A DNA stretch of 64,000 nucleotides, taken from a virus (Duplodnaviria > Heunggongvirae > Uroviricota > Caudoviricetes). The stretch covers positions 181,394-245,393 of the IMG/VR virus record IMGVR_UViG_3300042997_001281. One strand, written 5' to 3'. A model generated the notes under the pieces. The model searched no databases. It was not told the origin of the DNA and saw only the letters and a list, made by a program, of their open reading frames with translations. This document shows positions 6,101 through 56,282 of the stretch, one piece after another. Made by a program: the position numbers and the translations under genes. How positions within the stretch are numbered: position 1 is the stretch's first letter; the number at the start of each line of letters is the position of its first letter.

Positions 6101-8441
6101 AACAGTAACTGACAATTATATAACGGGAGCCACATTCAATACATCAACTGGTGTTATCACCATGACAAGAAATGACGGTGGTACTGTAACTGTTGATATT
6201 GATGGTAGATATTTGGAATCGTATTCTGAAACAGATACGTTAGCGTCTGTAACTGCAAGAGGTGCAAGTACTTCAACCAACCTCACATTTTCGGGAGATA
6301 ATGGTTTCTCGGGAATAAACACATTCTCAAACTCATATAATGAATTTGGTGATGGACATGGTAGCGTCTCAAATGATGGTGGTTGGAATGCAAGAGTAAA
6401 CATTGCAGGTACGGCACATGCAAGACTTGATGTTGTTTCAGTAAGTGACGGAATCATAACATCCATGTATTCCCACACCGGAAACGGAGCGGGTAAAATG
6501 GGTACAATGTCAAACCATCCATTAAACTTAATTGTAAATGGTAATGTTAGAACAACTTTAGATGCATCAGGTAATTTAGGTGTGACTGGAACAATAACCG
6601 GTACCGATATTTATGCGAGTAATTGGTTTAGAAATACCCAATCAAACGACGGTTTTTATAATGAGGTAACAACACAGCACTTGTCCTCAAATTCAAATGG
6701 ATATTGGGATATGTCAAGTACCACAACTTATTCTGGTATTAGGTTCTACACGGGTGGTCACGTAAGTGCATTAAGAGGTTATATATACGCAAACACCTCA
6801 AATGAAATTGGTTTCTTAAACACAGGTGGAAACTGGTCGTTACGTTGTGATAACTCACAAAACGTTCACGTTACAACTGCAGTATATGCACCAATTTACT
6901 ACGATAGTAACGACACAAATTATTACTTAAATCCAGCAAGTACCTCAAACTTAAAAACTGTTAAGGTTAATAGTACGGTTGCCGGAACTGAGGCATTGAC
7001 CGTTGATGGTGTTAATGGTAGATTGTTTACAATCACCGATGACATGACCGATTCAATCTTCTCGGTTAACACAATTTCAGGTTTACCTGTGATTGAGGCA
7101 TTTGCCGATTACACAGTTGTAATGGGTAGATATGGTCTAAATGATTTCAAGATAGATAATGCAGGTGCCGTAACTATTAGAGGTAACACAGTATGGCACG
7201 CAGGAAATGACGGAGCGAGTTCGGGACTTGATGCCGACTTATTAGATGGTCAACATGGTTCATACTACGCGGCGGCATCTTCGTTAAGTTCTTATCTACC
7301 TTTAGGTGGAGGTACAATGACCGGTACTATAACAATAACAAATACCGATATAAGAAGTAATTCTACTTCTAACTGGACGGGTGACCCAGGTACACAAGGA
7401 AAAATACAATATCACTCAGCAAGATGGTATATAGTATCTGACAGTGCTTCGGATAGAATTGTTCAGTTTAGAAGAAACGGAACCGATGTATCTTACATTG
7501 ATAATAGTGGTAATTTTATAGGTAACGCGTCCACCGCAACCAATGTTGATTATGGTGGATTAACTGGAACAGTTCCGACGTGGAACCAAAACACATCAGG
7601 AAATGCGGCAACCGCAACATATGCAACCACCGCAGGTGCACTAACCTCAATGAACATTTCTCAGTTCACAAACAACAGTGGATACATCACATCATATGTC
7701 GATACAAACTATTATGTGACCGGAGCAACATTCAATACGTCAACCGGTGTTATCACCATGACAAGAAATGACGGTGGAACTGTAACAGTTGATATCGATG
7801 GAAAATACGCTGAGTCATCACACACTCATGACGACAGATACTTTACAGAAACAGAGTCAGATGCTCGTTTCCAACCATTAGAGAATCAAAGAGTATCAAC
7901 TAGTAACTCACCAACATTTGTTGACATTTATGCCAACAATTGGTTTAGAAATAATCAGGTAAATGAAGGTCTTTATAATGAGGCTACGAATAACCATTGG
8001 TATTCAGAAAACAACGCAAGTTGGACAGTTGGTTCTACAAACGCATCTTACGGTGAAATAAGAATGAGATTGGGTCACCAAGGAACCTACAAAGGTAGTT
8101 TCTATTGGGACGCTGCGGGTATTGGAATATTAAATGAAATCGGTGGATGGGGTGTTAGAGTGAACTATGGTGGTTCATATGGTGGTACAATATATGGTTC
8201 TTGGAATACAACAGGACACTTCTTACCAACCACAAATAACGCATACGATTTGGGTTCAGCATCATTAGGTTGGAGAAACATTTACACGAATGACTTACAC
8301 CTAAGTAACATGAATAAACCCGAAGGTAACGATATTGACGGAACAAGTGGTACGTGGACAATCCAAGAGGGTGATGAAAACCTATACATAATCAATAACT
8401 TAAATGGTAAGAAATACCGCATAACTTTGGAAGAAATTTAA
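162..8441 (+). CDS. Giant modular tail fibre / receptor-binding structural protein (2759 aa)
   Basis: ORF of 8.3 kb that is rich in G/S/T/N. It contains repeated sequence modules: SGLDADTLDG(L/Q)HASxFLT four times, HPSVSAAGSSxNSGRTYIQDILLDxFGHITGITTASETV three times, YVTGATFNTSTGVITMTRNDGGTVTVDIDGKY at least five times, SGNAATATYATTAG three times and YAPIYYDxNDTxYYLNPASTSNL twice. Its position and composition are typical of phage fibres. The first in-frame ATG follows an upstream in-frame TAA at 45-47. Confidence 0.8.
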   Translation: MLENIQSSGWVIKDWVDEAVDPGDVSNFPALTETPAQVDLDQTPQGGMIVTGPIYGGGDITQYEYLNTNNYSTTTDTRYYTETEIANFFGGSVAITGYNKSNWDTAYGWGNHASQGYATTGYVQTQITNLIDGAPSALDTLNELAAALGDDANFATTIASSIGAKLPLSGGTMTGNIAFGATSNLGLTWGVNTDAAFIKFISTSNAAGGSYLEIGTQDDSDEEIKFTQSGNVRFYLATDGFLRNGAGYKYVFENGTWGINISGNAATVTNGVYDNGTYSNPSWITALAGSKITGNITGNAYNITQYTINQDLGTSNSPTFSSVTATAYNTTYSPLRDKFRLWGTSSEYAIGMMNGMTYGGLNDYAMTFQFNSEDDRGFWWGDTAHSDAQGAMALTTNGYLTVARGVRVGYGESDTATPNVPLQVYGSGSLVFDVQGSQGQLFSITDSLSGSLFSVNDISGLPILEVFSDDKLVAGSFGTNAFVVSGTTTTVSGSFAVSGSATVNGGTVWHSGNDGASSGLDADTLDGLHASSFLTSYSETDTLASVTARGASTSTQSVFTGGLNARKNQTDNNYSTAALTTESYGNTTTGVAFHISGNVGKFLEMRTDGVLYWDNSKVWTAGTDGASSGLDADTLDGLHASSFLTAHPSVSAAGSSNNSGRTYIQDILLDGFGHITGITTASETVTDTNDFISDVTFDGTNLTFTGSGGAFSSPVDISSVNTDTNYYVTGATFNTSTGVITMTRNDGGTVTVDIDGKYAESSHTHSVIDDMTDEHRLFNNMGQNHSTYTDFNSVGDFGARYVNGSTNGPGTGSSQFYGFTLGLGNDYSFANYAMQLAIPRYNTSDRYVTFRTREATTWGSWYKIYAGYADTAGALSSMNISQFTNNSGYITGYSETDTLDSVLSRGASTTRTAEFYQTSNTFINTVAAANRGLTVYQDTAGADAYMTFHIGGDYAGYFGLGGAENDLVWGGWSVGNVRYRIWHSGNDGSGSGLDADTLDGQHASAFLTGHPSVSAAGSSDNSGRTYIQDILLDSFGHITGITTASETVVDTDTNYYVTGATFNTSTGVITMTRNDGGTVTVDIDGKYQEAGTYLGAISYNNNSNSNYQLLWGSGNAVYGTAEVYVNPSTDYVYAASFNASDWFRSSGNTGWYNSTHGGGIYQTESTMVRTYDNRGLWIDGGNSNTVQDATLYVTATNNNDWLAQFNAYNSSKSEYGIYVNIAAGATYGYALRTDSSSFTYRVDGSGRVYAPIYYDINDTAYYLNPASTSNLSTVKLNSTASGTEVFTVDGVNGRLFTITDDLSNSLFSVNTIAGVPVIEAFADNKVIMGRYNQNDFHLNTSGNIAMGASPVSGVKLFVNGNVSIGGANSGYTFYNNGTSYFNGSVYVDDNLTIAGGYALKGNYGSWTGEENKIQWHSNNLYFQNTGGGDFVFRNGGATNIVTITNAGALTATSLVKSGGSSSQFLMADGSVSTNPGWITSYVDTNNYTTGVTWNGSTAVLTFTRNNGDTYNVTMLESISDVTVTGGTYSAGTLTLTKSNGGTVTVTGFSVVTDTNTYVTGATFNTGNGVITMTRTDGGTVTVDIDGRYLESYSETDTLASVTTRGASTTNDITIGGLTVGGSLSRGTYTTESNYVTGADNIVLKGNSTGVSGIFFESERDGSNINHPSDFGFIQYHAFGIGGSSGESNRLVIGVSNDADDIIVLNPVNTNGLVVRIGAGLTEYTVYHSGNIPTWNQNTSGNAATATYATTAGSAPNASNLNASYGVTAGAGNGLKFWGGSDLYKIHMGNSAEYHYGPVTDYSIKTNIDSNGATRGFTWGTDGGTPIAALNVGNGNMQIAGTFTASNFSGSSSGTNTGDQTNISGNAATATYATTAGALTSMNISQFTNNSGYITSYVDTNYYVTGATFNTSTGVITLTRNDGGTVTVPNLDGRYQLLGTYLTAHPSVAAASSSDNSGRTYIQDILLDSFGHVIGLSTATETVTDNYITGATFNTSTGVITMTRNDGGTVTVDIDGRYLESYSETDTLASVTARGASTSTNLTFSGDNGFSGINTFSNSYNEFGDGHGSVSNDGGWNARVNIAGTAHARLDVVSVSDGIITSMYSHTGNGAGKMGTMSNHPLNLIVNGNVRTTLDASGNLGVTGTITGTDIYASNWFRNTQSNDGFYNEVTTQHLSSNSNGYWDMSSTTTYSGIRFYTGGHVSALRGYIYANTSNEIGFLNTGGNWSLRCDNSQNVHVTTAVYAPIYYDSNDTNYYLNPASTSNLKTVKVNSTVAGTEALTVDGVNGRLFTITDDMTDSIFSVNTISGLPVIEAFADYTVVMGRYGLNDFKIDNAGAVTIRGNTVWHAGNDGASSGLDADLLDGQHGSYYAAASSLSSYLPLGGGTMTGTITITNTDIRSNSTSNWTGDPGTQGKIQYHSARWYIVSDSASDRIVQFRRNGTDVSYIDNSGNFIGNASTATNVDYGGLTGTVPTWNQNTSGNAATATYATTAGALTSMNISQFTNNSGYITSYVDTNYYVTGATFNTSTGVITMTRNDGGTVTVDIDGKYAESSHTHDDRYFTETESDARFQPLENQRVSTSNSPTFVDIYANNWFRNNQVNEGLYNEATNNHWYSENNASWTVGSTNASYGEIRMRLGHQGTYKGSFYWDAAGIGILNEIGGWGVRVNYGGSYGGTIYGSWNTTGHFLPTTNNAYDLGSASLGWRNIYTNDLHLSNMNKPEGNDIDGTSGTWTIQEGDENLYIINNLNGKKYRITLEEI

Positions 8442-13175: not shown

Positions 13176-13649
13176 ATGGCAAAAAGAACGCTTAAACTTG
13201 GAGAAATCCTACAATTGGAGAGTGAGATTAACGGTTTGGTTAATCCACAAACAGGAAAAGAAATTTTCATCGGTTTTAGAAAACATAAATTAGCACTTAA
13301 AACCAAATATTGGTTGACAGAACTTGGTGAGAGATTGTCTGCAGAACGCAAGTCAGTTGAAACACTTCGTGATGATATCATCCAAAAACATGGTGAAGAC
13401 GATGGTAAAGGTGGAATTCAAATCGGTATGTTCATTGAACAGAAAGATGAGAACGATGCAGTTATTTCTCGTGAGTTAAATCCAAAATACATCGATTTCC
13501 AAAAAGAATACGGTGAGTTGTTAAACGAGGAGAAAGAAGTTGAGTACACTCCGTTGACAGTAGAGGATTTGGAGAACGCCGGTGATACTACCGACAACTA
13601 TTCAATCTTATTCCAATTGGTATCAAAACCAACTGAAACAAACGAATAA
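13176..13649 (+). CDS. Hypothetical protein
   Basis: ORF of 157 aa that ends at a terminator hairpin. Confidence 0.5.
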   Translation: MAKRTLKLGEILQLESEINGLVNPQTGKEIFIGFRKHKLALKTKYWLTELGERLSAERKSVETLRDDIIQKHGEDDGKGGIQIGMFIEQKDENDAVISRELNPKYIDFQKEYGELLNEEKEVEYTPLTVEDLENAGDTTDNYSILFQLVSKPTETNE

Positions 13650-13677
13650 AAAAAGGGGGTTTATACCCCCTTTCTTA
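13650..13677. terminator. Bidirectional rho-independent terminator between convergent genes
   Basis: AAAAAGGGGG-tttata-CCCCCTTTCTTATTT: a GGGGG/CCCCC stem flanked by an A-run and a T-run. It lies between the plus-strand gene end at 13649 and the minus-strand operon end at 13661. Confidence 0.6.
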
Positions 13678-14764
13678 TTTCTATCTTTAATGAACCTACT
13701 TGGTATTCACCCGGTTCATAATATGGAATTGATAACCTCAATTTCTGTAACGTGTAGATGTCATCATCAGTCATTGGTTGAACTTCATAAACCATCACAT
13801 CTACGATATCTGTAAGGACAAATTTCGACCTTAAATCATAACGAGTATTCTTCTGTTCATTCTCGATGTAATCCTCGGGAATTGTCCCTAAATCGATTTT
13901 ATCGAAGAACGGTTCTATCTCAAATAACCTTGCTCGACTGCGAGTGGTTAAACCCATGGTGAAAGTCTTATAAACAAATAGATTATCCTCCCAATATCTT
14001 AATTCATTGAATGATGGAATTGATATGCCCCATTTACGAACAAAGTTTCTATTTGAGTTAACCTCATACTTAAATCTATCTTTCTTGTAATCATCACTGA
14101 AACGAGAAGTCTGTGAAACAAAGTGATATGTGATTGCGCATGATGTGGTTTTTAATTTATATCCCTTCAGTTTGGTTCTGATTAAGAAGTCATCATCCTC
14201 AGCAAACGCTGGTACAAAACTAAATCCATCAAAGTAACCCACATCCTCGAATAGTTTCTTATAACCACTCATAAAGAACACACCACCATCATATATCTGA
14301 CAGTTGTTCTTATTCTCTTCAACATATGAATCAAATTCTTCCCATTTAAAATCGTGGAACGAACTACCTAAGTCCATTATCACTTTACCGGGTCTTTGGT
14401 GACCAGCAAAAATGGGTGGTTCTAAGGTCGTATAACACATCAAAGTGTCTGGTGTGAGTAATCTATTCAAATTCTCGAGAAAGTGTCTCCCAATGACCAT
14501 ATCGTTGTGAATAAGGACAAGTTTCTCCGTATCTACAATCTTAATTGCAGCATTATACGTTTCTGAGAAGGTTAACCTATCATCATCGTGAACAAATGAA
14601 AGATTATCGTCATCTAAAGACTCTAACCATTCTTTGGTACCATCTGTTGAACCCCCACTACTGATTACTAATGGTGCATCGGGATAGATTTCACGAAGTC
14701 TTTTATAACAATCCTTGGTGAGGTCTAATTTATTGAATACCGCAAGTACAAAACTAATTTCCAT
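13661..14764 (-). CDS. Glycosyltransferase family 2 (GT-A fold)
   Basis: N-terminus MEISFVLAVFNKLDLTKDCYKRL…SSGGSTDGT is a GT2 signature. It is the last gene of the minus-strand operon. Confidence 0.65.
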   Translation of the reverse strand: MEISFVLAVFNKLDLTKDCYKRLREIYPDAPLVISSGGSTDGTKEWLESLDDDNLSFVHDDDRLTFSETYNAAIKIVDTEKLVLIHNDMVIGRHFLENLNRLLTPDTLMCYTTLEPPIFAGHQRPGKVIMDLGSSFHDFKWEEFDSYVEENKNNCQIYDGGVFFMSGYKKLFEDVGYFDGFSFVPAFAEDDDFLIRTKLKGYKLKTTSCAITYHFVSQTSRFSDDYKKDRFKYEVNSNRNFVRKWGISIPSFNELRYWEDNLFVYKTFTMGLTTRSRARLFEIEPFFDKIDLGTIPEDYIENEQKNTRYDLRSKFVLTDIVDVMVYEVQPMTDDDIYTLQKLRLSIPYYEPGEYQVGSLKIEIRKGV

Positions 14765-15851
14765 CGATTTCCTTTTTAATAAAGTTTAGTGCTGATTCGA
14801 CAACCTGATGCATGTCATAGTATTTGTATTCACCAAGTCTTCCACCAAACAATACACAATCCTTAACTTTCTCCGCCTCTTCTTTATATTTTGAAAACAT
14901 TTCATTGTTCTCTTTATCGTTCACAGGATAATATGGGTCAGTTTTATCTGCCACATACTCTTGTGGGTATTCATATGTAATCCACGAGCCATTCGTTTCT
15001 AAACCCTCAAAGTGTTTATGTTCAATGATACGAGTGAATGGTACATCCACATCAGTATAGTTCATTACAGGGACACCCTGAAGGTTTGGTGAACTATAAT
15101 ACTGGTGTTCGAAACTAACTGTTTTGTATTCTAACTTACCGTACTTGTAACCGAAGAACTTATCGATTGGTCCTGTGAATATTACTTTGTTATGTTTAGG
15201 TAAACTACCTTTAAAATAATCCACACCCAATCTAACCTCAACTCCCTCTAATAACTTTTCAAAAATCTGAGTGTAACCACCAATTGGGATACCTTGATAT
15301 TTGTCAAAGAAATAATTGTTGTCATAGGTAAAACGAACTGGTAACCTCTTAATGATTTCCTTTGGTAATTCCTTGGGGTCTTTCATCCATTGTTTATGAG
15401 TATAACCCTTAATGAGTTTTTCATAAACATCCTTACCTACAAGTTTGATTGCCTGTTCTTCTAAGTTGCTCGGTTCTTCAATATCATTTGATTGTTCTGC
15501 AATCATATCTTTCGCCTGTTGAGGTGTCTTAACTCCCCACAGTTTATTGAATGTCCACATACTAAAAGGAAGTGAATATAATTCTTCTTTGTAGTTGGCA
15601 ATCACATGGTGTCTATAGTTGTTAAACTCAGCGAATTGGTTAATCCAATCCCACACTTCTTTGTTTGATGTGTGGAAGATGTGTGCACCGTATACTTGAA
15701 CATTGATACCATCTTTATTCTCGGTGTAACAATTGCCACCGATGTGTTCTCTTGAATCAATAACTAAAACTTTTTTACCTGACTTAGTTAATTCGTGGGC
15801 ACATATGGAACCGAAGAAACCGGCACCAACTATTAGATAATCGTACTCCAT
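14754..15851 (-). CDS. glf: UDP-galactopyranose mutase
   Basis: Matches E. coli Glf closely over the whole length: MEYDYLIVGAGFFGS (FAD GxGxxG), HIGGNCYTE, YGAHIFHT, IEHKHF, GGRLGEYKYYDMHQV. Confidence 0.93.
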   Translation of the reverse strand: MEYDYLIVGAGFFGSICAHELTKSGKKVLVIDSREHIGGNCYTENKDGINVQVYGAHIFHTSNKEVWDWINQFAEFNNYRHHVIANYKEELYSLPFSMWTFNKLWGVKTPQQAKDMIAEQSNDIEEPSNLEEQAIKLVGKDVYEKLIKGYTHKQWMKDPKELPKEIIKRLPVRFTYDNNYFFDKYQGIPIGGYTQIFEKLLEGVEVRLGVDYFKGSLPKHNKVIFTGPIDKFFGYKYGKLEYKTVSFEHQYYSSPNLQGVPVMNYTDVDVPFTRIIEHKHFEGLETNGSWITYEYPQEYVADKTDPYYPVNDKENNEMFSKYKEEAEKVKDCVLFGGRLGEYKYYDMHQVVESALNFIKKEIDGN

Positions 15852-15852
15852 A

Positions 15853-16509
15853 TTAAATCTCTATTAAACCAATACCTAAAAAATTACCGTCAACACTATC
15901 ATATTGACTCATAAATTCATAGTGTTTATATTGTTCCTTAATTTCATTCCAAAACTTAACAACGCCAGGACATGCGTCACTACATATATCATGAAAAGAT
16001 ACGTATTTGGGGTTATATTGTTTACAGATTTCAAAATCTCTTTTTAACCCTTCATAACTGTGGTCACCATCAATTAAAATTAAATCAATATCTTGATTTA
16101 TTGATTCTCTTTTTAATTTTTGACTATGAGTTTGTAAGTAGTTAAAATTACCATATTTTTGGTATTCGTCAAGCATCCTTGATTGTGGCATAAAGTCACA
16201 CGCGAATCCATTAACTTCACCATTTATTTTGGTTAATATTTCCTTTGTTATAATAAACGTACCACCCCACCTACAACCAATTTCAAGATACGATTTAATT
16301 CTATATTTTGATATTTGTTTAAGATACGGAGCAAATTGATTTGGGTACTGCCAAAAACGAATACCTTCATTAAAGTGTTCAGACAATTCTGAAGGTAACT
16401 CTCTCGAATTCTCACCATTCATACCAAATGTGGGGAGAATTGTTTCTAAAACATTTAAATCGATTTCTTTGATATCAATTTCAGATATCCTTTTAAAAAT
16501 TTCTACCAT
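15853..16509 (-). CDS. Class I SAM-dependent methyltransferase, CmcI/TylF-like sugar O-methyltransferase type
   Basis: LEIGCRWGGT (motif I) and LILIDGDHSYEGL match the CmcI-family LxxIDGDHSYE motif. Confidence 0.6.
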   Translation of the reverse strand: MVEIFKRISEIDIKEIDLNVLETILPTFGMNGENSRELPSELSEHFNEGIRFWQYPNQFAPYLKQISKYRIKSYLEIGCRWGGTFIITKEILTKINGEVNGFACDFMPQSRMLDEYQKYGNFNYLQTHSQKLKRESINQDIDLILIDGDHSYEGLKRDFEICKQYNPKYVSFHDICSDACPGVVKFWNEIKEQYKHYEFMSQYDSVDGNFLGIGLIEI

Positions 16510-17261
16510 TTGTGTTTGAATAATACTTTTTTATTGTTAAAAAATACATCACCGTTTTTATCTTGGATTGTACCCTCAGGACTTGGGAAATGTAAATGAT
16601 TATGGATATGGTACGGCATTTCGATTATATTGTAATCTTCTCTTGTGCCAATCAAAAATGAAATCAACCATTGTTGTTTTGCGTAATGCGCAAACATTGG
16701 TTCAACTGACGGATACAATTCAACATAGTCACTTAGTAGTTTAGCCCAAGTTCTTTTATTCATTGCGAGAACACCGGTGTTATAGACTTTAATCTTATCC
16801 CACGGTTTGTCACTCACACCGTCAACCTTAACACCCGTTTGACCTAATCTACCCGATTCAATCATTAATGTGTCAGTTGGTGATGCATTATAACCAACAT
16901 AAACGTCACCATCTTTGAAGTTTCTGAATTGTTCTAACTCTTCGTCAGTCATGTTACGTTGAAGGATGATGTCACCGTCAGTATAGAAGATAACGTCATC
17001 ATCTTGGGTTATTGAATTGAAGTGATTGGAGTTTAAGAAATCCCCGTGTTGAACACACTTATTATTATTCAATGCCTGTACGTCTGAAATCGATAATGTT
17101 GCGATATCGATAGTTTTAAATGGTAATGATAAACCTTCCCCATCACCAACAAAAACCAAAACATTCTTATCGAAGTTTGAGTTTTTCTCAATTGATTTAA
17201 AGTATGGTCTCATCTTGGTCATATAATTTATATCGGACCCAGTTGCTAAAATTAACTTCAT
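16503..17261 (-). CDS. Putative GT-A fold glycosyltransferase (DxD)
   Basis: FYTDGDIIL is a DxD-like motif. The gene sits in the glycosyltransferase operon and is translationally coupled to its neighbours. Confidence 0.4.
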   Translation of the reverse strand: MKLILATGSDINYMTKMRPYFKSIEKNSNFDKNVLVFVGDGEGLSLPFKTIDIATLSISDVQALNNNKCVQHGDFLNSNHFNSITQDDDVIFYTDGDIILQRNMTDEELEQFRNFKDGDVYVGYNASPTDTLMIESGRLGQTGVKVDGVSDKPWDKIKVYNTGVLAMNKRTWAKLLSDYVELYPSVEPMFAHYAKQQWLISFLIGTREDYNIIEMPYHIHNHLHFPSPEGTIQDKNGDVFFNNKKVLFKHKW

Positions 17262-17887
17262 TACTTTTGAATTTTACTGTAAAAATTATTTTGTCTTTCC
17301 TGTCTCTCGATTGTTTTAGGATGAAGGATACAAAATCCCTCATCTTCAGGCATAATCGAATATTTCTTTGCCCCTATAATTTTTTCATGAACTTTACCAT
17401 ACCAGTTTAAACCTTTACGGTATAATCTACCCTGCCAATCAGGGAAGTTAATTCTACCCTGTTCATCTTGTTTCCATCCCCACTTGTTAATGTGTTCTTC
17501 GGTTATACCATCCACCGTGTTTATTCGAGGAAGTACAAACAAATCAACTTCAGGATTTGATTCAAGTATTGCCGGTAACATTTTAATTAGTTCCTCGGTA
17601 ATCATTTCATCCGCATCCAATTGTAAAATGTAATCACCACCACAGTAATCGTTTAATTTGTTTTTCCAAATAGAAAAATCATTTACGAAAACCATACCTC
17701 TCCATGTTTGAACATGTGGGAATCTATTAAATGGTAATAAGAAATCAATTACCTCATCCGACCCATTTTTTTGGTCATATAAAACTATGATTTCATCTTC
17801 AGGTCTTTTATGTTCTAAAAGAAACGGTACAAGTCTTTTGATTTCTTGTAACTCATCACAAACGGTAATTGCATAACTTATTTTCAT
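17261..17887 (-). CDS. Glycosyltransferase family 2
   Basis: MKISYAITVCDE… and LQLDADEMI (DxD) are a GT2 signature. Confidence 0.65.
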   Translation of the reverse strand: MKISYAITVCDELQEIKRLVPFLLEHKRPEDEIIVLYDQKNGSDEVIDFLLPFNRFPHVQTWRGMVFVNDFSIWKNKLNDYCGGDYILQLDADEMITEELIKMLPAILESNPEVDLFVLPRINTVDGITEEHINKWGWKQDEQGRINFPDWQGRLYRKGLNWYGKVHEKIIGAKKYSIMPEDEGFCILHPKTIERQERQNNFYSKIQK

Positions 17888-18165
17888 TGTTGTCTTTCTC
17901 TTGCGAATATTTTAAATTTTTGATTATTGGGTCCCGTAAATTCTATCGATGCGTGATTGGTGTTGTTGAGTGTTATCGTTAAATTGGATTCTTCTTGTTG
18001 TGTTGCGAAAACCGTCGGTTCACCTTCATCAAATTGAAACATCCATTCGGTTTGATTAAATGTAACTGTCGGTTGTAATGTAAATAATTGAAGGTTATGG
18101 TTCGTAAATAAAAATGAATTGTCTTCATTTTCTCTACCTAATTTAAAATTGTCAAGTAATCCCAT
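17884..18165 (-). CDS. Hypothetical protein in the glycosylation operon
   Basis: ORF whose start and stop overlap those of its neighbours. Confidence 0.4.
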   Translation of the reverse strand: MGLLDNFKLGRENEDNSFLFTNHNLQLFTLQPTVTFNQTEWMFQFDEGEPTVFATQQEESNLTITLNNTNHASIEFTGPNNQKFKIFARERQQ

Positions 18166-19412
18166 TATAGTTTTGTTAACTGAGGTATTTTTAATTTAAC
18201 TTCTTTAGGTTTAACCACATATGGTGTTATGATTGATTCAAACTTCTCGGTCATTTTTGACATCGAATATTTTTCTCTATTCTCTTCCATCAAAACTTGA
18301 GAGTTACCGTAGAACGTGTCATATTCATTTTTAACCATTCTCATAATCTCAACAACTTCACCATAGTTTGGTGTAAACCATTTTGACCCCTTGATGATAA
18401 ATGAATCAACAACACTCTCATGAACATCAGTCAATGAACCACCTAACATTACTGCCTTATCCATTGGTAAGAAGTCTTTATGTCCCGACCAATTAGATGC
18501 AAGAATAGGTTTACCTGTCATTGAGAACTCAAGTAGAGGTCTACCGAATCCTTCGCCTTTTGTTAAGGTTACCATTGCCTTCACTTTTGGGTGATTGTAT
18601 AACTCATTCATTTCCTTGTCTGTTAACTCACCGAATAAAAGATAGATTGGCGGTGGGTTTTCAATTCCCTTAACCAAATCAGAAATTTTCTTCTTAAAGT
18701 TTTCTCTTTCTTTTATCGAAAAAGATGCTGAAGATGTTTTAAGAATTAATGCGGGTTGTTCTTCCGAATCCTTAAATGCCTCAGAGAAACACTTAATTAA
18801 CATACCAACATCTTTTCTATCCTGACCTAAATTACCTTTTAACCAGTGACCAACAAAAAGATAAGAAAAATCTTCGTTAATTCCAACATCTAACCCTGAA
18901 AATTTATCATTATAAATTTCAGTGTCAACACCCTCAAAAAGAACCTCAACAGGTTTCTCAATTTTATGTTGTTTAATTAGTTTACCGGTTAGGTTATCAG
19001 TTTCATTGTAAACGGTTTGAAGTAGTACTTCCTTGGAGAAGGTTGAAGTTGTGATGATTAAATCCATTCTGTTACAACCATCAATCCATTCCTTTGATGC
19101 CATTGTTGTTTCAATACCGGCAGTTATACCGATACTGAACCTACCAATCTTTTGGAATTCATTTGGTACTGTAACCTGAACATAAACATCGGGAGTTGCG
19201 GGTATCACTTTAACGATATGCGCAAGTATCCACTTATTATATTCGGTATCCTCTTGTAATGCCGTTTTTGGTGTTGAACCCCAATGACACGAATCCACCC
19301 TTATTTCAAATAAGTCCATGTCACGAAGAGACCTCAATAAATCTCTCGAGTGTGCTCCATACCCACTTAATGTTTCAACGGGTCCTCTAAATAATAAAAA
19401 AGGTTTACTCAT
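18165..19412 (-). CDS. Glycosyltransferase family 1/4 (GT-B fold)
   Basis: GEGFGRPLLEFSMTGKPILASNWSGHKDF is the EX7E motif region of GT4-type enzymes. Confidence 0.7.
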   Translation of the reverse strand: MSKPFLLFRGPVETLSGYGAHSRDLLRSLRDMDLFEIRVDSCHWGSTPKTALQEDTEYNKWILAHIVKVIPATPDVYVQVTVPNEFQKIGRFSIGITAGIETTMASKEWIDGCNRMDLIITTSTFSKEVLLQTVYNETDNLTGKLIKQHKIEKPVEVLFEGVDTEIYNDKFSGLDVGINEDFSYLFVGHWLKGNLGQDRKDVGMLIKCFSEAFKDSEEQPALILKTSSASFSIKERENFKKKISDLVKGIENPPPIYLLFGELTDKEMNELYNHPKVKAMVTLTKGEGFGRPLLEFSMTGKPILASNWSGHKDFLPMDKAVMLGGSLTDVHESVVDSFIIKGSKWFTPNYGEVVEIMRMVKNEYDTFYGNSQVLMEENREKYSMSKMTEKFESIITPYVVKPKEVKLKIPQLTKL

Positions 19413-20767
19413 ACTATACGATATAATTCAAATTTCTTTTTAGGTTTATAGTTTTTGAAAGTTGTTTCAATTCCATCAATTAATGAATCACACATCACTT
19501 TACTTGATAGGTTTTCGATTGCCCATTCTCTACCTTTTAATCCTCGTTCTTTTCTTCCTTCTTTACCCCAACCATAAACTTCAGAAATTGCACCGGCAAC
19601 ATCATTATTGTTTACTCTGTCTTCATAAATGAAAGGAGTTGGGACCGAACCATTTAGATTGTTAACGGATGGCCAAACGGGTACAACCCATTCACCATGT
19701 AAAGTTGAACCGTGTTTCTTTCTATTGTGGAGTGAACCGAATGTTATGTAATTGTCTGCGGTGTAATCAAAACCACATTGGTCTTGTAATCCACCTGTGA
19801 CATTAACAATGATTGGTGTGCCAGCCATTATACTTTCGGCGGTACCCAAACCAAAACCTTCGTTGTTCGCAATGTTAATTGTACAGTCAACAATATTATA
19901 CAACTCATTCAATTTATTCTGTTCCAATTTTAAGTTAACAAACTTAATATTATAGTCGGGACAAACACTTTTAGCCACCGCCGGTAGGTCGGTACCATTC
20001 TCATCGATTGGTGTGGTGTGCATTAACAATAAACATTTATCGGATTGTTCTTTAGGTAAAGAATCACAGAATAATTTATATGATAATATCACATCACCCG
20101 GTTGTTTTCTTTTGATGTTACGATTGTTATAGAATAGAATAAAATCATATTCTTTATCTTCGTAAATGTATTTCTTTAAATCATCAGCAACACTATCTGT
20201 TGGTTTGAACACATCTGAATTAATACCGTGAGGAACATAACTGATTTGCCAATCCTCCAAAGGTTTGAAGGTTGGTTCGTTATCCATTTTACCCACTCTA
20301 TGGACTAAACCATATGTTTGTTTGGAGATACAACCAATCCAATCACAACTTTCATAATTGTTTCTATTATAGGTTGGGTCAGGTAGGTTATCCCACACGT
20401 GGTAATATAGAATTGGAATTTGTTGTCTAATCTCATGTTCCGCCTCGTACAACCATTGCCAGTAATGTGGGTCGGTGAAGTGTAATATTGCGTCAGGTTT
20501 CTCAGACTCAATAAGAGACCTCAATGTAAAAATATTACCATATCCATTACTTGGAATGATTTTAAGGTTTGCATCAAGTACTCTTGTCTTCTCCCTAATG
20601 TCCGCATTTATATCTACAATTTTACCTGCCTCAGGATGGTTGATTGCACTACCCAACTGTACCCAATCGTACTTGTGAATAGTACCCATTACCAATTCTT
20701 TTGACATAGTAGCAACACCCGATGTCATTCTTAAATCATCAGATAATAATAGAATCTTTTTCTTCAT
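19409..20767 (-). CDS. Glycosyltransferase family 1/4 (GT-B fold)
   Basis: NNEGFGLGTAESIMAGTPIIVNVTGGLQDQ is a GT4 C-terminal signature. Confidence 0.7.
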   Translation of the reverse strand: MKKKILLLSDDLRMTSGVATMSKELVMGTIHKYDWVQLGSAINHPEAGKIVDINADIREKTRVLDANLKIIPSNGYGNIFTLRSLIESEKPDAILHFTDPHYWQWLYEAEHEIRQQIPILYYHVWDNLPDPTYNRNNYESCDWIGCISKQTYGLVHRVGKMDNEPTFKPLEDWQISYVPHGINSDVFKPTDSVADDLKKYIYEDKEYDFILFYNNRNIKRKQPGDVILSYKLFCDSLPKEQSDKCLLLMHTTPIDENGTDLPAVAKSVCPDYNIKFVNLKLEQNKLNELYNIVDCTINIANNEGFGLGTAESIMAGTPIIVNVTGGLQDQCGFDYTADNYITFGSLHNRKKHGSTLHGEWVVPVWPSVNNLNGSVPTPFIYEDRVNNNDVAGAISEVYGWGKEGRKERGLKGREWAIENLSSKVMCDSLIDGIETTFKNYKPKKKFELYRIV

Positions 20768-20769
20768 AG

Positions 20770-20967
20770 TTAGAATTTAGACCCCGTTGTTGCCAAACCG
20801 TTATGGTTGTTTATCTGGTCTCTAAAATCCTCTCTTGTATTGTATAAATCAAGAGCCCTATTAACTAACTTCTGTAGGTTAATTGAACCATCTATCGTGT
20901 TGATTTTGAATTTTTTGTACACATCATCTAAAATGTGAACACTCGTAAGTTTTGTCTGTGCTTTCAT
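20770..20967 (-). CDS. Small hypothetical protein, first gene of the minus-strand operon
   Basis: ORF of 65 aa lying 2 nt upstream of the GT4 gene. Confidence 0.4.
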   Translation of the reverse strand: MKAQTKLTSVHILDDVYKKFKINTIDGSINLQKLVNRALDLYNTREDFRDQINNHNGLATTGSKF

Positions 20968-21004
20968 ATAAGTATATAAATTTATATATATTATATGGTC
21001 AAAA

Positions 21005-21035
21005 AATAACGGACAGTTTTTACTCTATCCGTTAT
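21005..21035. promoter_or_regulatory. Inverted repeat ATAACGGA-N15-TCCGTTAT in the divergent intergenic region
   Basis: Perfect 8-bp inverted arms. AACCGATAA recurs at 21043 and 21293. The site lies between the minus-strand operon and the methyltransferase gene. Confidence 0.3.
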
Positions 21036-21053
21036 CTTAAAACCGATAATATA

Positions 21054-21227
21054 TTATTGTTCCCCCTGAGAATCAAGAGTTTCGTTAATCTCCTCAATCT
21101 TCTGTACCAACTGTTGAACCTGTTGGTCCATAGTAGTTGTTGGTTGAAATGTTTCGTTTAATGTTATTGTCGCTGGTGAAGGGTTCACTGTTGTTTGAAC
21201 GTTCTTCTTTTTACATCCGCATCCCAT
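21054..21227 (-). CDS. Small Q-rich hypothetical protein (57 aa)
   Basis: Reverse-strand ORF MGCGCKKKN…QQVQQLVQKIEEINETL that is not in the supplied track because it is under 60 aa. Confidence 0.25.
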   Translation of the reverse strand: MGCGCKKKNVQTTVNPSPATITLNETFQPTTTMDQQVQQLVQKIEEINETLDSQGEQ

Positions 21228-22582: not shown

Positions 22583-22789
22583 ATGAGTACACTTTTTAAC
22601 GGGGACTTTGAATATGAAGAGGAATCGGACTTTAAAGAATTCCTTGAAACTATTGAACCTGAAAACGCATTAAAACTTATCGATATCGCACTTACCCATG
22701 CGAACAAAGAAGGTGCGTTCACAATCGAAGAATCATATTGCATTTACAAATGCATAGATAAATTAAAAAAACAACAGAATGAAAATTAA
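22583..22789 (+). CDS. Hypothetical acidic protein
   Basis: ATG at 22583. The listed ORF begins at an upstream TTG. Confidence 0.45.
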   Translation: MSTLFNGDFEYEEESDFKEFLETIEPENALKLIDIALTHANKEGAFTIEESYCIYKCIDKLKKQQNEN

Positions 22790-23909
22790 ATTTGAGTACG
22801 TTTGGTTGGATGGATATTCACCCGAACCAAATCTTAGAAGTAAAATTAAAGTCGTTGACTATAACGGCGAGTTAACCATTGATGACATCTCTAACTGGGG
22901 ATTCGATGGAAGTTCAACAATGCAGGCGGAGGGTAACTTCTCCGATTGTTACTTAAAACCTGTTAGGTTTTATAAAAACAATAACAGTAAAGATGATTAC
23001 CCAACAGTTTATGTGTTGTGTGAAGTACTTGACGGAAACAATGAGATTCACCCATCAAATTACCGAGCAAAAGTTGGGGAAGAAGATACCGATTTTTGGG
23101 TTGGATTTGAACAAGAATATTTTATTCGTTCAGGACATAACCAACCTGTATTGGGTTTTGAAAATGGTGGGATGATTGACCCACAAGGAAAATACTATTG
23201 CGGTGTTGGTGGTCATGTTGTTGGTAGACTTATTAGTGATGAACATTTAGATATGTGTTTAAACTATGGTATCAATCTTGAAGGAACAAACGCAGAAGTT
23301 GCATTGGGTCAATGGGAATATCAAATCTTTGCTAAAGGTAAACTTAAAGGTGCTGATGACTTATGGATGTCTCGTTACTTCTTAAATAAAATTTCTGAAA
23401 GATATTCGGTGGCAATTGAGTTACACCCTAAACCAATTACGACAGGTGAATGGAATGGTTCAGGTTTACATGCCAATTTCTCAAACCAAAAAATGAGAGA
23501 GACAGGTGGGGAAGAATACTTCAACGCAATCTTTAAAACATTTGAAAGTAGGACAAAAATTCATATTGAAAATTATGGTTCCGATAATCATTTAAGATTA
23601 ACGGGTAAATTTGAAACACAATCAATTGATAAATTCAGTTGGGGTGTATCTGATAGAGGTGCATCAATTAGGGTTCCAAAAACCGTCGGAGAAACGTGGA
23701 GGGGTTATCTTGAAGATAGACGACCCGGTTCAAACGCTGACCCTTACAGAATCTTAACTGTTATTTGTAAATCACTATCATTAGCAGATGAGTTAAAAAA
23801 TACATTACATGTAATGTACGCTGAAATTAAAACCGATGACTTGTCAACAAAATACGGAACACTTTCAAACGATGAATTATTTGAAGAGTATAAAAAAGAC
23901 GAAGAATAA
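22779..23909 (+). CDS. Glutamine synthetase type II (eukaryote-type GS)
   Basis: Aligns colinearly with GSII: FEYVWLDG, WGFDGSSTMQAEGNFSDCYL, GFEQEY, GKYYCGVG, GTNAEVALGQWEYQI, KPITTGEWNGSGLHANFS, RLTG…ASIRVP…RGYLEDRRPGSNADPY. Confidence 0.9.
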   Translation: MKIKFEYVWLDGYSPEPNLRSKIKVVDYNGELTIDDISNWGFDGSSTMQAEGNFSDCYLKPVRFYKNNNSKDDYPTVYVLCEVLDGNNEIHPSNYRAKVGEEDTDFWVGFEQEYFIRSGHNQPVLGFENGGMIDPQGKYYCGVGGHVVGRLISDEHLDMCLNYGINLEGTNAEVALGQWEYQIFAKGKLKGADDLWMSRYFLNKISERYSVAIELHPKPITTGEWNGSGLHANFSNQKMRETGGEEYFNAIFKTFESRTKIHIENYGSDNHLRLTGKFETQSIDKFSWGVSDRGASIRVPKTVGETWRGYLEDRRPGSNADPYRILTVICKSLSLADELKNTLHVMYAEIKTDDLSTKYGTLSNDELFEEYKKDEE

Positions 23910-23913
23910 TAAA

Positions 23914-24276
23914 ATGGGTAAGGTATTTTTAATCGATATCGACGGAACAATCTGTGATGACATCAAAAACGAAGACAGTCATTTATATGTAACCGCAAAT
24001 CATTTCCCAAACGCATTGGATATAATCAATAAATGGTATGATGAAGGTCATATCATTACCTTCTTTACTGCAAGAGAAAGTAAAGACAGAGAAGTTACCG
24101 AAACGTGGTTAAAAGAAAAAGGTTTTAAATACCATGGATTGGTTATGGACAAACCAAGAATCAAAGACGGACAAGAGTATGTGTGGATTGATAACAGGAA
24201 AGTTAGGGCAATCACATATCTTGGAACATGGTCAGAATTAAAAGAAGTAGATGCCAAAATACAAACATTTGAATGA
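23914..24276 (+). CDS. HAD-superfamily hydrolase, small phosphatase or nucleotidase
   Basis: MGKVFLIDIDGTICDD carries HAD motif I (DxDGT). ATG at 23914. The listed ORF has an upstream extension that overlaps the GS gene. Confidence 0.5.
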   Translation: MGKVFLIDIDGTICDDIKNEDSHLYVTANHFPNALDIINKWYDEGHIITFFTARESKDREVTETWLKEKGFKYHGLVMDKPRIKDGQEYVWIDNRKVRAITYLGTWSELKEVDAKIQTFE

Positions 24277-25565
24277 TGAATAACATAGATAAACAATATC
24301 AATTACTCCTACAAGACATTCTTGATAATGGAGTTAAGAAAGAAACAAGAAATGGTGGTACCATTTCAGTATTTGGTAGACAAATACGTCATAAAATGAG
24401 TGAAGGGTTTCCTTTACTTACAACCAAGAAGATGGCTTGGAAAACTATTGTAACTGAATTATTATGGTTCTTACGTGGTGATACAAACATTAAATATTTA
24501 GTTGATAACAATTGTCACATTTGGAATGGTGATGCTTACCAAGCCTATATTAAAAGATATAATAAAGGTGAATATGTTGGTAAAACCAAATTATTAGAGA
24601 ATTCTAAGAAAAATAGAACATTAACTGAACCATTTACAATAGAAGAATTTATTGACAAAATCAAAACCGATGATGAGTTTGCTAAGAAATGGGGTGAGTT
24701 AGGTCCAATATATGGTAAACAATGGAGAAGTTGGGAAACCGAGGATGAATATCTCGATGGGGTATCATATTTCAAATACCCACCAATAGACCAAATCCAA
24801 AATCTAATCAACGACCTTAAAACAAATCCAGACTCAAGACGATTAATGGTTAGTGCTTGGAATGTGGGGGAGTTGGATAAAATGACTTTACCTCCTTGTC
24901 ATTATGGATTTCAAGTTTATACAAGAGAGTTGAGTTTGAATGATAGAGTATTAGAATTTACAAAAAGAGATTTAGACCCTTCTGAGTTTAGAAGAGGTGG
25001 TAATTATGGGACAGTAATTCCTGAAGAAAGGACATTAGAAGTTCTAAACAATCATAATATCCCAACAAGAGCAATCTCATTAATGTGGAATCAACGTTCA
25101 GTAGATACATTCTTAGGTTTACCATTCAACATTGCATCTTATGGATTGTTATTGGAAATAATTGCTAAAACTGTTAATATGGTACCTGATGAGTTGATTG
25201 GTAATTTAGGTGATGTACATTTGTATTCAAATCATATTGAACAGGCTAAAGAACAGATTGGAAGAAAATACACTCACGAAGAGAGAACAGAATTGTTAAA
25301 GACCGCAATGGGTGATTTTTATAAAACAGCGGTTGATGAACAAGTACCATTCGGTGGTGGTTTAAGTGAGTATTATAATTCTTACAAAATACCAAATCAC
25401 ACAAGAGAACCATTTAAATTACCCACATTAAAAATCAATTCAGGTAATGAAAATTGGCATTTATTAACCGTAGATGAGGTTATTAATACTTTAGATGTGG
25501 ATATCACTTTTAAAACGGATAATTACCAATCGCATTCAACAATTAAGGCGCCCTTGTCCAATTGA
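24273..25565 (+). CDS. thyA: Thymidylate synthase ThyA family, dUMP-specific, with three insertions
   Basis: Colinear with E. coli ThyA: R..GT.S.FG.Q.R, GFPLLTTKK, ELLWFLRGDTN, GPIYGKQWR, DQIQNLINDLKTNPDSRR, VSAWNVGELDKMTLPPCH, RSVDTFLGLPFNIASY with the Asn retained, GDVHLYSNH and C-terminal IKAPL. It carries about 50-aa, 50-aa and 40-aa insertions relative to the 264-aa enzyme. Confidence 0.88.
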   Translation: MMNNIDKQYQLLLQDILDNGVKKETRNGGTISVFGRQIRHKMSEGFPLLTTKKMAWKTIVTELLWFLRGDTNIKYLVDNNCHIWNGDAYQAYIKRYNKGEYVGKTKLLENSKKNRTLTEPFTIEEFIDKIKTDDEFAKKWGELGPIYGKQWRSWETEDEYLDGVSYFKYPPIDQIQNLINDLKTNPDSRRLMVSAWNVGELDKMTLPPCHYGFQVYTRELSLNDRVLEFTKRDLDPSEFRRGGNYGTVIPEERTLEVLNNHNIPTRAISLMWNQRSVDTFLGLPFNIASYGLLLEIIAKTVNMVPDELIGNLGDVHLYSNHIEQAKEQIGRKYTHEERTELLKTAMGDFYKTAVDEQVPFGGGLSEYYNSYKIPNHTREPFKLPTLKINSGNENWHLLTVDEVINTLDVDITFKTDNYQSHSTIKAPLSN

Positions 25566-25636
25566 TATGAAAAATAACCAACAATTAAAGCACCTTTTTC
25601 ACAACTTTTATATATTTATACTAAAAGAAATAATAT

Positions 25637-26299
25637 ATGGCAGTTGTTTATTTACACAAAAAGAAAAATACTAATGAAGTTTTTTATGTTGGGATTGGCC
25701 TTTATGAAGAAAGAGCTTATTCTTATAGAAATAGAAACATACATTGGAAAAACGTTGTTGCTAAATATGGATATGATGTTGAAATTATTGAATCGGATAT
25801 TGAATGGGAAGGTGCATGTGATACTGAAAAATATTTAATTCAAAAATATGGTAGAGATACATTGACAAATATGACAGATGGCGGTGAGGGGTTATTCAAT
25901 CCATCAGATGAAGTTAGAGAAAAGTTAAGATACCCAAAAACAGAAGAGCATAAACAAAAATTAAGAGAGTATCAAATTGGGGTAACGCAATCTGAAGAAA
26001 CAATACAAAAAAGAATATCACATGGATTTCATAAATCTGATGAGTATAGATATAAAATGAGTATTGCATTATCAGGTGATAATAATCCAATGAAAAAAGA
26101 AGAGAATAGAGAAAAATTAAGGAAACCAAAACCACCAAGAACAAAAGAACATAGTAAAAAAATAAGTGAAACCAAAAAGGGAAAACCTACATGGAACAAA
26201 GGTAAAACTTTAGAAAAATTTGTTTGTGATATTTGTAGCAAACAAATTGGTGGGTATGGTAATCTATTACAACACAAAAAGAAACATTTATCAAATTAG
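25637..26299 (+). CDS. GIY-YIG homing endonuclease with NUMOD3-like repeats
   Basis: VVYLHKKKNTNEVFYVGIG…R…HWKN is a GIY-YIG motif. It has a basic C-terminal region with repeated …E(E/T)xxKxS/R… helices. It is free-standing immediately downstream of thyA. Confidence 0.8.
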   Translation: MAVVYLHKKKNTNEVFYVGIGLYEERAYSYRNRNIHWKNVVAKYGYDVEIIESDIEWEGACDTEKYLIQKYGRDTLTNMTDGGEGLFNPSDEVREKLRYPKTEEHKQKLREYQIGVTQSEETIQKRISHGFHKSDEYRYKMSIALSGDNNPMKKEENREKLRKPKPPRTKEHSKKISETKKGKPTWNKGKTLEKFVCDICSKQIGGYGNLLQHKKKHLSN

Positions 26300-26764: not shown

Positions 26765-27006
26765 TGTTTATCCACATCACACCTGACGAATTTGTAGAAG
26801 AGTTTAGAGAATCTTGGAAATTGGGGTACATATCCCAACCTTCAATAGATTATGCAACAAACGCAATCCATGTTTGGTTTGAGGGTAGAGATTGTATTTT
26901 ATTTAATTTTAAGGATTATGGTTGGTTTAATGATAACCGATTCAATACATATAGTATGTCATCGGGACCCGCAGGGATAACGATACAAATAACAAAAACT
27001 AGATAA
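26764..27006 (+). CDS. Hypothetical protein
   Basis: ORF of 80 aa. Confidence 0.45.
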   Translation: MFIHITPDEFVEEFRESWKLGYISQPSIDYATNAIHVWFEGRDCILFNFKDYGWFNDNRFNTYSMSSGPAGITIQITKTR

Positions 27007-27545
27007 TGAAACTAATGGATATTATTAATGAAGAAAACAAACCAAAGTACGAATTTGGTTGTGCAATGTTGTACTTCGCATTTCCTGAAATGAAGTACAT
27101 CCACGGTATGATTGACCCTAACGATGTTTACACCGAAGAAGAAGATGGTTCATTCGGATTGGAGACAGAACCACATACCACATTACTATATGGTTTACAC
27201 GATGGTGTATCCATTGATGATGTAAAAAATGTATTGAATAAACACACATACCCATCATGTAAAGTACATAACCCGTCATTGTTTAAGAACAAACAATATG
27301 ATGTATTAAAGTTCGATGTTGAGGGTGACAGTCTTCATGATGCAAATGGTGAATTGAGAGGGTATCCACACACAAACGATTATCCTGATTACCACCCACA
27401 TTTAACCGTGGCATATCTTAAACCGGGAACGGGTAATAAGTACATTAGGAAGATGATAGGTTTAAATTACGAACTAACACCACAACATGCGGTGTATTCA
27501 CAACCAAACGGAGAAAAAACAAAGATAAAGATAAACGTAGACTAA
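27006..27545 (+). CDS. 2H phosphoesterase superfamily protein (LigT/ThpR/Acb1-like)
   Basis: Two H-x-T/S-x motifs, HTTLLYG and HLTVAYL, spaced about 85 aa apart in a 179-aa protein. This is the 2H fold signature. Confidence 0.6.
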   Translation: MKLMDIINEENKPKYEFGCAMLYFAFPEMKYIHGMIDPNDVYTEEEDGSFGLETEPHTTLLYGLHDGVSIDDVKNVLNKHTYPSCKVHNPSLFKNKQYDVLKFDVEGDSLHDANGELRGYPHTNDYPDYHPHLTVAYLKPGTGNKYIRKMIGLNYELTPQHAVYSQPNGEKTKIKINVD

Positions 27546-54760: not shown

Positions 54761-54847
54761 AATTTTTTATTTATATATAAATATCACCGCCCCTATATTG
54801 AGAACACCACCAATATTACATAGATTTATTCGGAAAATATAAATAAA

Positions 54848-56281: not shown

Positions 56282-56282
56282 A

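Follow-up and report, generated by a model that had tools for sequence, protein, structure and literature searches.

A modular, virus-specific glycosylation cassette carrying a UDP-galactopyranose mutase in a metagenomic jumbo phage

What does a phage glycosylate when it encodes both a set of glycosyltransferases (GTs) and an enzyme that makes an activated furanose sugar? The question is raised by a minus-strand operon at positions 13661-20967 of a 64,000-nucleotide stretch of tailed-phage DNA (IMG/VR record IMGVR_UViG_3300042997_001281, positions 181,394 to 245,393; hereafter the window), which encodes five GTs (two GT4-like, two GT2, and one of the GT-A fold with an Asp-x-Asp (DxD) motif), the UDP-galactopyranose mutase Glf, a methyltransferase, and two small proteins. 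The operon is one version of a widespread, virus-specific, and modular cassette that is labelled merely "glycosyltransferases" in isolates and whose core GT orthogroups are listed in one metagenomic paper. The favoured reading, to which we give about an even chance, is that the cassette glycosylates virion proteins of the phage itself, in the cytoplasm, with a methylated glycan containing galactofuranose (Galf).

Layout and gene content of the operon

The nine open reading frames (ORFs) coincide exactly with the block that a first-pass annotation, made from the sequence alone, had described as a tightly packed minus-strand operon, and the packing is confirmed by the gene junctions, which in order of transcription measure +2, -4, -1, -4, -1, -7, +1, and -11 nt (six overlaps and two 1-2 nt spacers). 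It is the sole long minus-strand block within the first 40 kb of the window. Its G+C content (33-35%) is the same as that of its surroundings, and the GC skew reverses, as expected for genes on the opposite strand. All nine proteins are acidic and lack transmembrane segments.

The 5' limit of the operon is set by a hairpin and T-run read from the sequence (ATAACGGA...TCCGTTAT TTTTTT; 21006-21035, minus strand), which terminates an upstream small gene; an equivalent hairpin (ATATCGGAC...GTCCGATATTTTTT) is kept at most related loci. The upstream gene (21054-21227, minus strand) encodes 57 residues (MGCGCKKK..., then a T/Q/P-rich stretch and a helix), is kept in close relatives with a dN/dS of 0.18, and is probably not a member of the operon because the terminator intervenes. 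A perfect 16-bp palindrome, TATATAAATTTATATA (20973-20988), lies 5 nt upstream of the first start codon and is a candidate promoter and/or operator, and TA-rich palindromic elements occupy the same position in nearly all related loci, including that of Flavobacterium phage immuto. A sigma-70 promoter scan gave a count equal to that in shuffled sequence. A second, TATATAAAT-type palindromic element at 54774-54790, just upstream of a minus-strand gene (54200-54760), may be of the same promoter/operator type. Downstream, a bidirectional intrinsic terminator (13645-13679; hairpin AAAGGGGGT-TTAT-ACCCCCTTT, with T-runs on both strands) stands between the 3' end of the operon and a convergent 157-aa gene and is common to both.

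The first gene (20770-20967) encodes a conserved 65-aa protein that opens the cassette in close and distant relatives alike (dN/dS 0.10). Its best PDB profile matches are the ribbon-helix-helix (RHH) proteins ParG and CopG, at non-significant E values of 0.3-1.5, and the AF2 monomer is a low-confidence model (pLDDT 62) of coil-helix-helix-helix form (coil 1-11, helix 12-22, helix 31-44). The protein may, tentatively, be an RHH-type autoregulator, an idea that would suit a conserved first gene with a TA-rich palindrome ahead of it. Genes 2 and 3 encode two GT4-like enzymes of the GT-B fold, GT4a (19409-20767, 452 aa; Glycos_transf_1 and GT4-conflict matches, PHROG 2170) and GT4b (18165-19412, 415 aa). 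Both score slightly under the cutoff for Pfam Glycos_transf_1, and both match PHROG glycosyltransferase families and have an intact EX7E motif. They are only distant kin of each other, and GT4b is invariably paired with GT4a; the pair is adjacent in Rhodothermus phage RM378 as well. The closest solved homologue of GT4a is B736L of chlorovirus NY-2A (E 2.6e-16), ahead by eight orders of magnitude. Some GT4a relatives (P0315, P0335, P0352, and others) are 785-876 aa long and match GT4a in two separate stretches; an explanation of these ~800-aa proteins as GT4a-GT4b fusions was rejected, and the insert may be an intein or other mobile element. Gene 4 (17884-18165) encodes a 93-aa protein of a family here called u93, which has a dN/dS of 0.06, is present in one or two copies in relatives, and gave no match in Pfam and PDB searches. 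Both small proteins are under purifying selection in relatives. Gene 5 (17261-17887) encodes GT2b, a 208-aa GT2 enzyme of the GT-A fold (PF00535, 4.9e-7) that is 34-72% identical to its relatives and closes the conserved head of the cassette.

Gene 6 (16503-17261, 252 aa) is a previously unannotated GT. The first-pass annotation had called it a DxD GT-A-like protein, and structure prediction upholds this, with a Rossmann-like GT-A fold and an invariant D95-x-D97. It is a candidate for the transferase of the Galf module. Its fold neighbours, rich in protein-glycosylating and giant-virus enzymes, include the protein-glycosylating enzymes GlyE, LH3, and Skp1 AgtA, the viral proteins A64R and R699, and the lipopolysaccharide (LPS) enzymes LgtC and WbbM. 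Gene 7 (15853-16509, 218 aa) encodes a class I S-adenosylmethionine-dependent methyltransferase of the Methyltransf_24/TylF type (PF13578, 30.8 bits against a cutoff of 26.3), and its orthologues have weak TylF matches as well; its probable role is that of a sugar O-methyltransferase, the sugar being its predicted substrate. The earlier description of this protein as CmcI-like was right as to methyltransferase, but no CmcI match was obtained. Gene 8 (14754-15851, 365 aa) matches PF03275 (1.3e-73) and, over its full length, the TIGR00031 equivalog (398 bits against a cutoff of 303.75), and has the N-terminal FAD-binding motif GAGFFG; these matches unambiguously predict a bona fide Glf that makes UDP-galactofuranose. 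Glf occurs in ~90 of 50,697 phage records, in agreement with the initial remark that it is uncommon in phages. The last gene (13661-14764, 367 aa) encodes GT2a (PF00535, 5e-9), the conserved tail of the cassette, which has a conserved C-terminal domain of ~110 aa matching no assigned function and is 67-83% identical within the close clade and 26-28% identical to the proteins of immuto and Microcystis phage Mel-JY01. The remaining inventory of the first-pass annotation (two GT2, two GT4, Glf, and two proteins of no known family) is borne out by Pfam, TIGR00031, and PHROG.

Conserved core and hypervariable middle

A megablast search of the locus against the 50,697 phage records returned no nucleotide match. 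At the protein level, GT4a is 47-50% identical to its counterparts in immuto and Mel-JY01 and 27% identical to that of RM378, and relatives were found on 79 IMG/VR contigs (47-81% identity). Architecture was compared across the 79 IMG/VR loci, immuto, and Mel-JY01, clustered gene by gene. The cassettes begin with a head of fixed order (the u65 gene, GT4a, GT4b, one to three small proteins, GT2b) and end with GT2a. The genes in between, anything from none to about nine, form a hypervariable middle, giving complete cassettes of 4.3 to 11.4 kb. In relatives the middle genes encode SDR epimerase/dehydratases, DegT aminotransferases, hexapeptide acetyltransferases, a FabH-like enzyme, a PhyH dioxygenase, methyltransferases, and extra GT2s. 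The module of the window (GT-A enzyme, methyltransferase, and Glf) is intact in other metagenomic contigs, one of them 213 kb long, with GT-A orthologues 56-85% identical, and in one related locus (L033) Glf is present with other partner genes. Immuto has an 11-gene version, the largest homologous cassette. The exact 65-aa protein of the window was found on contigs of up to 310,691 bp, from which the source is taken to be an aquatic jumbo phage of ~310 kb.

The 709 cassette genes (109 families, ~80 variants) include no polytopic membrane protein, flippase, polymerase, ABC transporter, or initiating phosphoglycosyltransferase, and none exceeds two marginal hydrophobic segments. As judged from these sequences, the pathway is entirely cytoplasmic and soluble in every variant. 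Of 1.84 billion representative proteins, 280 belong to the GT4a family at E<=1e-30. When 185,579 species genomes were scanned, the family was confined to 14 contigs of metagenome-assembled genomes (MAGs) with incoherent taxonomy, which are probably mis-binned phage DNA. By these sequence scans the core GT4a is virus-specific. The core is common to phages of Flavobacterium, Microcystis, and Rhodothermus, hosts from different phyla.

The slot between GT4b and GT2b is variable in its own way. In 22 distinct sister cassettes, an ORF of 69-119 aa between GT4b/u93 and GT2b is a homologue of a fragment of gp23, the T4-type major capsid protein (e.g. L035:12830-13090, L100:12803-13162, and L049:12803-13114). 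Each of the 16 members tested matches Pfam Gp23, with E values down to 2.8e-14, and the part of gp23 to which the profile aligns is residues 260-317, a strand and the spine helix. The gene is under purifying selection (dN/dS 0.28), and its products share an N-terminal FKFF motif with the u93 family. The slot families u93, c6, c56, and c39 are mutually non-homologous by hhalign, and the idea that they are a common acceptor was rejected.

The target of glycosylation

On the favoured reading, four virus-specific core GTs (GT4a, GT4b, GT2b, and GT2a) would assemble a conserved core glycan on a phage-encoded acceptor, and the swappable middle module would set the outer sugars. The module found here, consisting of the GT-A enzyme at 16503-17261, the methyltransferase, and Glf, would supply UDP-galactofuranose, transfer it, and O-methylate the product. 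The acceptor would most likely be one or more virion structural proteins and the outcome a variable glycan coat, like the glycosylation of chlorovirus capsids and mycobacteriophage virions. The cassette has the make-up of such a system, with soluble, virus-encoded GTs and sugar-modifying enzymes and no export machinery. Since the core is kept across phages whose hosts belong to different phyla, a phage-encoded acceptor fits better than a host-specific surface glycan. Homology to B736L, the fold neighbours of the GT-A enzyme, the Gp23 fragment, and the prolyl 4-hydroxylase and two further GTs encoded in the window are hints that lean toward a protein or virion target, and the presence of a capsid-derived gene within a glycosylation cassette is hard to square with a DNA or host-envelope target. 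The absence of membrane machinery, together with a canonical thymidylate synthase (ThyA) and the virion DNA of immuto, which has no glycosylated base, disfavours DNA and host export. Glycosylation of virion proteins had also been put forward in the first-pass annotation, and it is still the best supported reading through the soluble pathway, the virus-specific GT4, the cross-phylum core, and the Gp23 fragment; the argument from position is weak.

That argument had been that the operon lies directly beside receptor-binding genes. The adjacency itself is real, as fibre-like, LamG, and Gly-rich genes are found directly downstream on the opposite strand, and the order thymidylate synthase ... DUF192 ... 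cassette / 157-aa gene and fibre genes is kept in the close clade, where GT4a identity is 68% or more. The neighbours of the core in immuto, Mel-JY01, and RM378 are nuclease, replication, or lysis genes (PD-(D/E)XK nuclease; polymerase-like/ribonucleotide reductase). In the window the fibre genes are convergent to the operon and stand behind the bidirectional terminator. Because the adjacency is limited to the close clade, is convergent, and has a terminator in between, position does not single out the fibres as the target, and the capsid is at least as likely an acceptor as a fibre. A gene at 162-8441 (plus strand) encodes a fibre-like protein of 2759 aa, a possible glycosylation substrate, in which Ser and Thr together make up 24% of the residues and for which matches to tail-fibre PHROGs are only short.

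Several points weigh against a virion target. The 64-kb window contains neither the Gp23-fragment gene nor a true capsid gene, and the role of the fragment where it does occur is unexplained. The core sets of RM378 and immuto sit among replication and nuclease genes and not among structural genes. The T4-type late promoter TATAAATA was rejected as a clue to the timing of expression, since it shows no enrichment in the window (exact copies number 6 and 4 on the two strands, vs ~9 expected from base composition). Fold and sequence neighbours of GTs are no guide to their acceptors, and soluble GT4 and GT2 enzymes also make host glycans linked to undecaprenyl pyrophosphate at the inner membrane leaflet, with initiation and export provided by the host. 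For B736L, the acceptor is itself unknown (PMC9614988). DNA-modification genes were inspected in the 64-kb window of a ~310-kb genome and in the ±10-kb flanks of relatives. All the arguments about the target are indirect; what we infer is the glycan, the reaction order, which donors and acceptors the enzymes use, and, most of all, what the acceptor is.

Glycosylation of DNA, the strongest published rival, was missing from the first-pass annotation. Here the GTs would glycosylate a hydroxylated pyrimidine, with Glf feeding in galactofuranose, and so protect the genome from restriction. In the Pootjesviridae, a phage Glf has been assigned to DNA galactosylation of 5-hydroxycytosine (PMC13326640), and when genomes are mined for DNA GTs, the signature usually used is a GT-B enzyme close to a ThyS gene (preprint 10.1101/2023.12.21.572611). 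The window has a ThyA homologue 3.3 kb from the operon, the GT4 pair of RM378 lies amid replication genes, and hypervariable sugar chemistry would be expected of anti-restriction modifications too. The resemblance is closest for Rhizobium phage RL38J1 (Pootjesviridae), which like the window has a phage Glf (48% identical to that of the window), GT-B glycosyltransferases, and a nearby thymidylate-synthase homologue. The pre-replicative route through ThyA is recognised by N177D with L143D/E (5-hydroxymethylcytosine, 5hmC) or by D169N (5-hydroxycytosine, 5hoC) (PMC13326640), and RL38J1 has a D169N 5-hydroxy-dCMP synthase (PMC13326640), whereas the enzyme of the window is a canonical, methylating, dUMP-specific ThyA with L143, C146, D169, and N177, residues kept in 31-33 of 34 relatives; none of the diagnostic substitutions is present in the enzyme of the window, the inspection having covered the window and the flanks of relatives. 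For a post-replicative route, no C5-methyltransferase or TET/JBP dioxygenase was found beside the GTs in the window, where small ORFs were only partly scanned: the divergent adjacent DNA methylase is PF01555, of the N6/N4 and not the C5 type, and the sole 2-oxoglutarate oxygenase found (52577-53449) is a prolyl 4-hydroxylase homologue and not a TET/JBP enzyme. Liquid chromatography with ultraviolet and mass-spectrometric detection (LC-UV-MS) of immuto virion DNA gave dA, dC, dT, and fdPreQ1 replacing dG, with no glycosylated nucleoside (PMC10516641), a result transferred here by homology; the homologous cassette of immuto thus coexists with unglycosylated DNA, unlike what is proposed for RL38J1. 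The cassette proteins of the window, moreover, are all acidic. After these tests of ThyA, methylase, oxygenase, and immuto DNA, we consider a DNA target very unlikely. A phage Glf, or GTs near a thymidylate synthase, should not automatically be read as DNA hypermodification, and the active-site residues of ThyA need checking. The synthase of the window (24273-26299 region, plus strand; 430 aa) has three insertions relative to Escherichia coli ThyA with a canonical active site, and is followed by a homing-endonuclease-like gene (25637-26299).

The phage enzymes might instead act at the inner membrane on undecaprenyl-linked precursors of the host O-antigen, capsule, or other glycoconjugates, using the initiating transferase, flippase, and ligase of the host. 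The cell surface would be altered, which might block superinfection, for instance, or spare progeny from loss on debris. Remodelling of the host surface was the second possibility in the first-pass annotation, and the enzyme families are compatible with it: GT4, GT2, SDR, DegT, acetyltransferase, and Glf in a plan of conserved flanks and variable middle are the pattern of a bacterial O-antigen or capsule locus, LgtC and WbbM are among the fold neighbours of the GT-A enzyme, and modification of the host surface is the reading favoured for cyanophage GT clusters in published discussions (PMC12801897). Bacterial clusters, which share the conserved flanks around a hypervariable block of GT and NDP-sugar genes with Glf included, nevertheless have wzx, wzy, wzm/wzt, or an initiating transferase, and no cassette variant does; an initiating phosphoglycosyltransferase with a flippase/polymerase or ABC transporter is encoded by 0 of the 709 cassette genes, so that initiation, flipping, polymerisation, and transport are lacking in all ~80 variants. 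The core enzymes are constant across phages of hosts from different phyla, which have unrelated surface glycans, and the core GT4 has no cellular relatives in the 185,579 genomes, the MAG contigs of incoherent taxonomy aside. Serotype conversion by phages, in the systems known (Gtr, Oac), is the work of membrane proteins of temperate phages. GtrABC comprises a membrane-embedded GtrA flippase, GtrB, and a serotype-specific GtrC, and neither transmembrane proteins nor Pfam families matching GtrABC or Oac were found among the proteins of the operon. An envelope target is therefore judged improbable. A somewhat stronger, though still minor, candidate is some other cytoplasmic target. The glycan could be built on a small carrier protein of the phage, such as the 93-aa protein or, in relatives, the Gp23-fragment product; it could be attached to a host protein or to a phage protein outside the virion; or it could take the form of a free oligosaccharide or a glycolipid serving as decoy, storage compound, or takeover factor. 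Conserved small proteins under purifying selection invariably lie between GT4b and GT2b, and the acceptor is not fixed by any data. The slot proteins are, however, non-homologous among sublineages while the GT core is constant, which makes them unlikely as a common acceptor, and a decorated glycan built by five enzymes is more elaborate than known inactivating protein glycosylations.

Virion-protein glycosylation, the favoured reading, has known counterparts, each of which differs from the present system. Autonomous capsid glycosylation in chloroviruses (PBCV-1, NY-2A) belongs to viruses of eukaryotes, whereas here it would be the work of a single compact operon in a bacteriophage, on an acceptor that is a predicted one; chlorovirus loci, as reviewed, have no cassette of conserved core and variable middle, unlike here. 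In mycobacteriophages, Freeman and colleagues are said to have found in 2023 that phage GT clusters O-glycosylate capsid and tail-tube subunits, the glycan acting as a surface shield. Compared by description, the mycobacteriophages are small siphoviruses that infect Actinobacteria and have 2-4 GTs by the structural genes, whereas the present cassette combines five GTs with sugar-nucleotide genes, and the jumbo phages that carry it probably infect Bacteroidota. A group with similar features has been described as the moraphages (Perez-Hernandez et al. 2025, PMC12619734). These are aquatic jumbo phages with genomes of up to 307 kb that are predicted to infect Bacteroidota and have genes for glutamine synthetase and four core orthogroups of glycosyltransferases. 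The window is likened to them by description through its glutamine synthetase homologue (22779-23909, plus strand, a feature highlighted for that group), its conserved core of four GTs, and the exact protein match on a 310-kb contig. In the moraphage paper the GTs are listed, with no analysis of the locus or of how it varies (PMC12619734).

A bolder and more doubtful proposal is that this is a "phage O-antigen" locus, by which a deep lineage of aquatic jumbo and T4-superfamily-like phages (immuto, Mel-JY01, RM378, and moraphage-like phages) would glycosylate its capsid through a conserved GT4-GT4-GT2...GT2 core and vary the outer sugars by swapping sugar-nucleotide cassettes, to give phage "serotypes"; the capsid-protein fragment might then serve as an adaptor, or mimic the acceptor, and so couple the enzymes to the capsid protein. 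Were the virion to carry the glycan, an abundant aquatic phage lineage would have a genetically swappable sugar coat, the counterpart of bacterial serotypes, with a bearing on adsorption, escape from capsid-sensing defences or grazers, particle stickiness, and phage engineering. The interest of the locus lies in its O-antigen-like cassette swapping, in the capsid-fragment gene embedded in its relatives, and in a cultured relative, immuto, that makes the hypothesis testable.

Other sugar and auxiliary genes of the window

Further genes for the modification of proteins and glycans lie at 50-58 kb of the window. The prolyl 4-hydroxylase homologue (52577-53449, plus strand) matches Bacillus P4H structures (2e-30; PDB 5iax), is kin to the PBCV-1 enzyme, and has a copy of TATAAATA 11 nt upstream; no collagen-like repeats to serve as its substrate were found in the window proteins. 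Two more predicted GTs are encoded on the plus strand, a GT-B-like protein with RXYLT1_C/GT47 similarity (50623-51504) and a strong GT2 match (56944-57681), and with the hydroxylase, by homology, they show a wider capacity for protein and glycan modification. With a class I/II aminotransferase (49318-50583, plus strand) and a metallophosphoesterase (56211-56978, plus strand), these two GTs make up a second group of sugar-related genes in the window. Its auxiliary genes, besides that for the glutamine synthetase homologue, encode an S-adenosylmethionine decarboxylase (54848-55252, minus strand) and, on the plus strand, an RNA ligase-like protein (27006-27545) and a tRNA nucleotidyltransferase (47262-47996).

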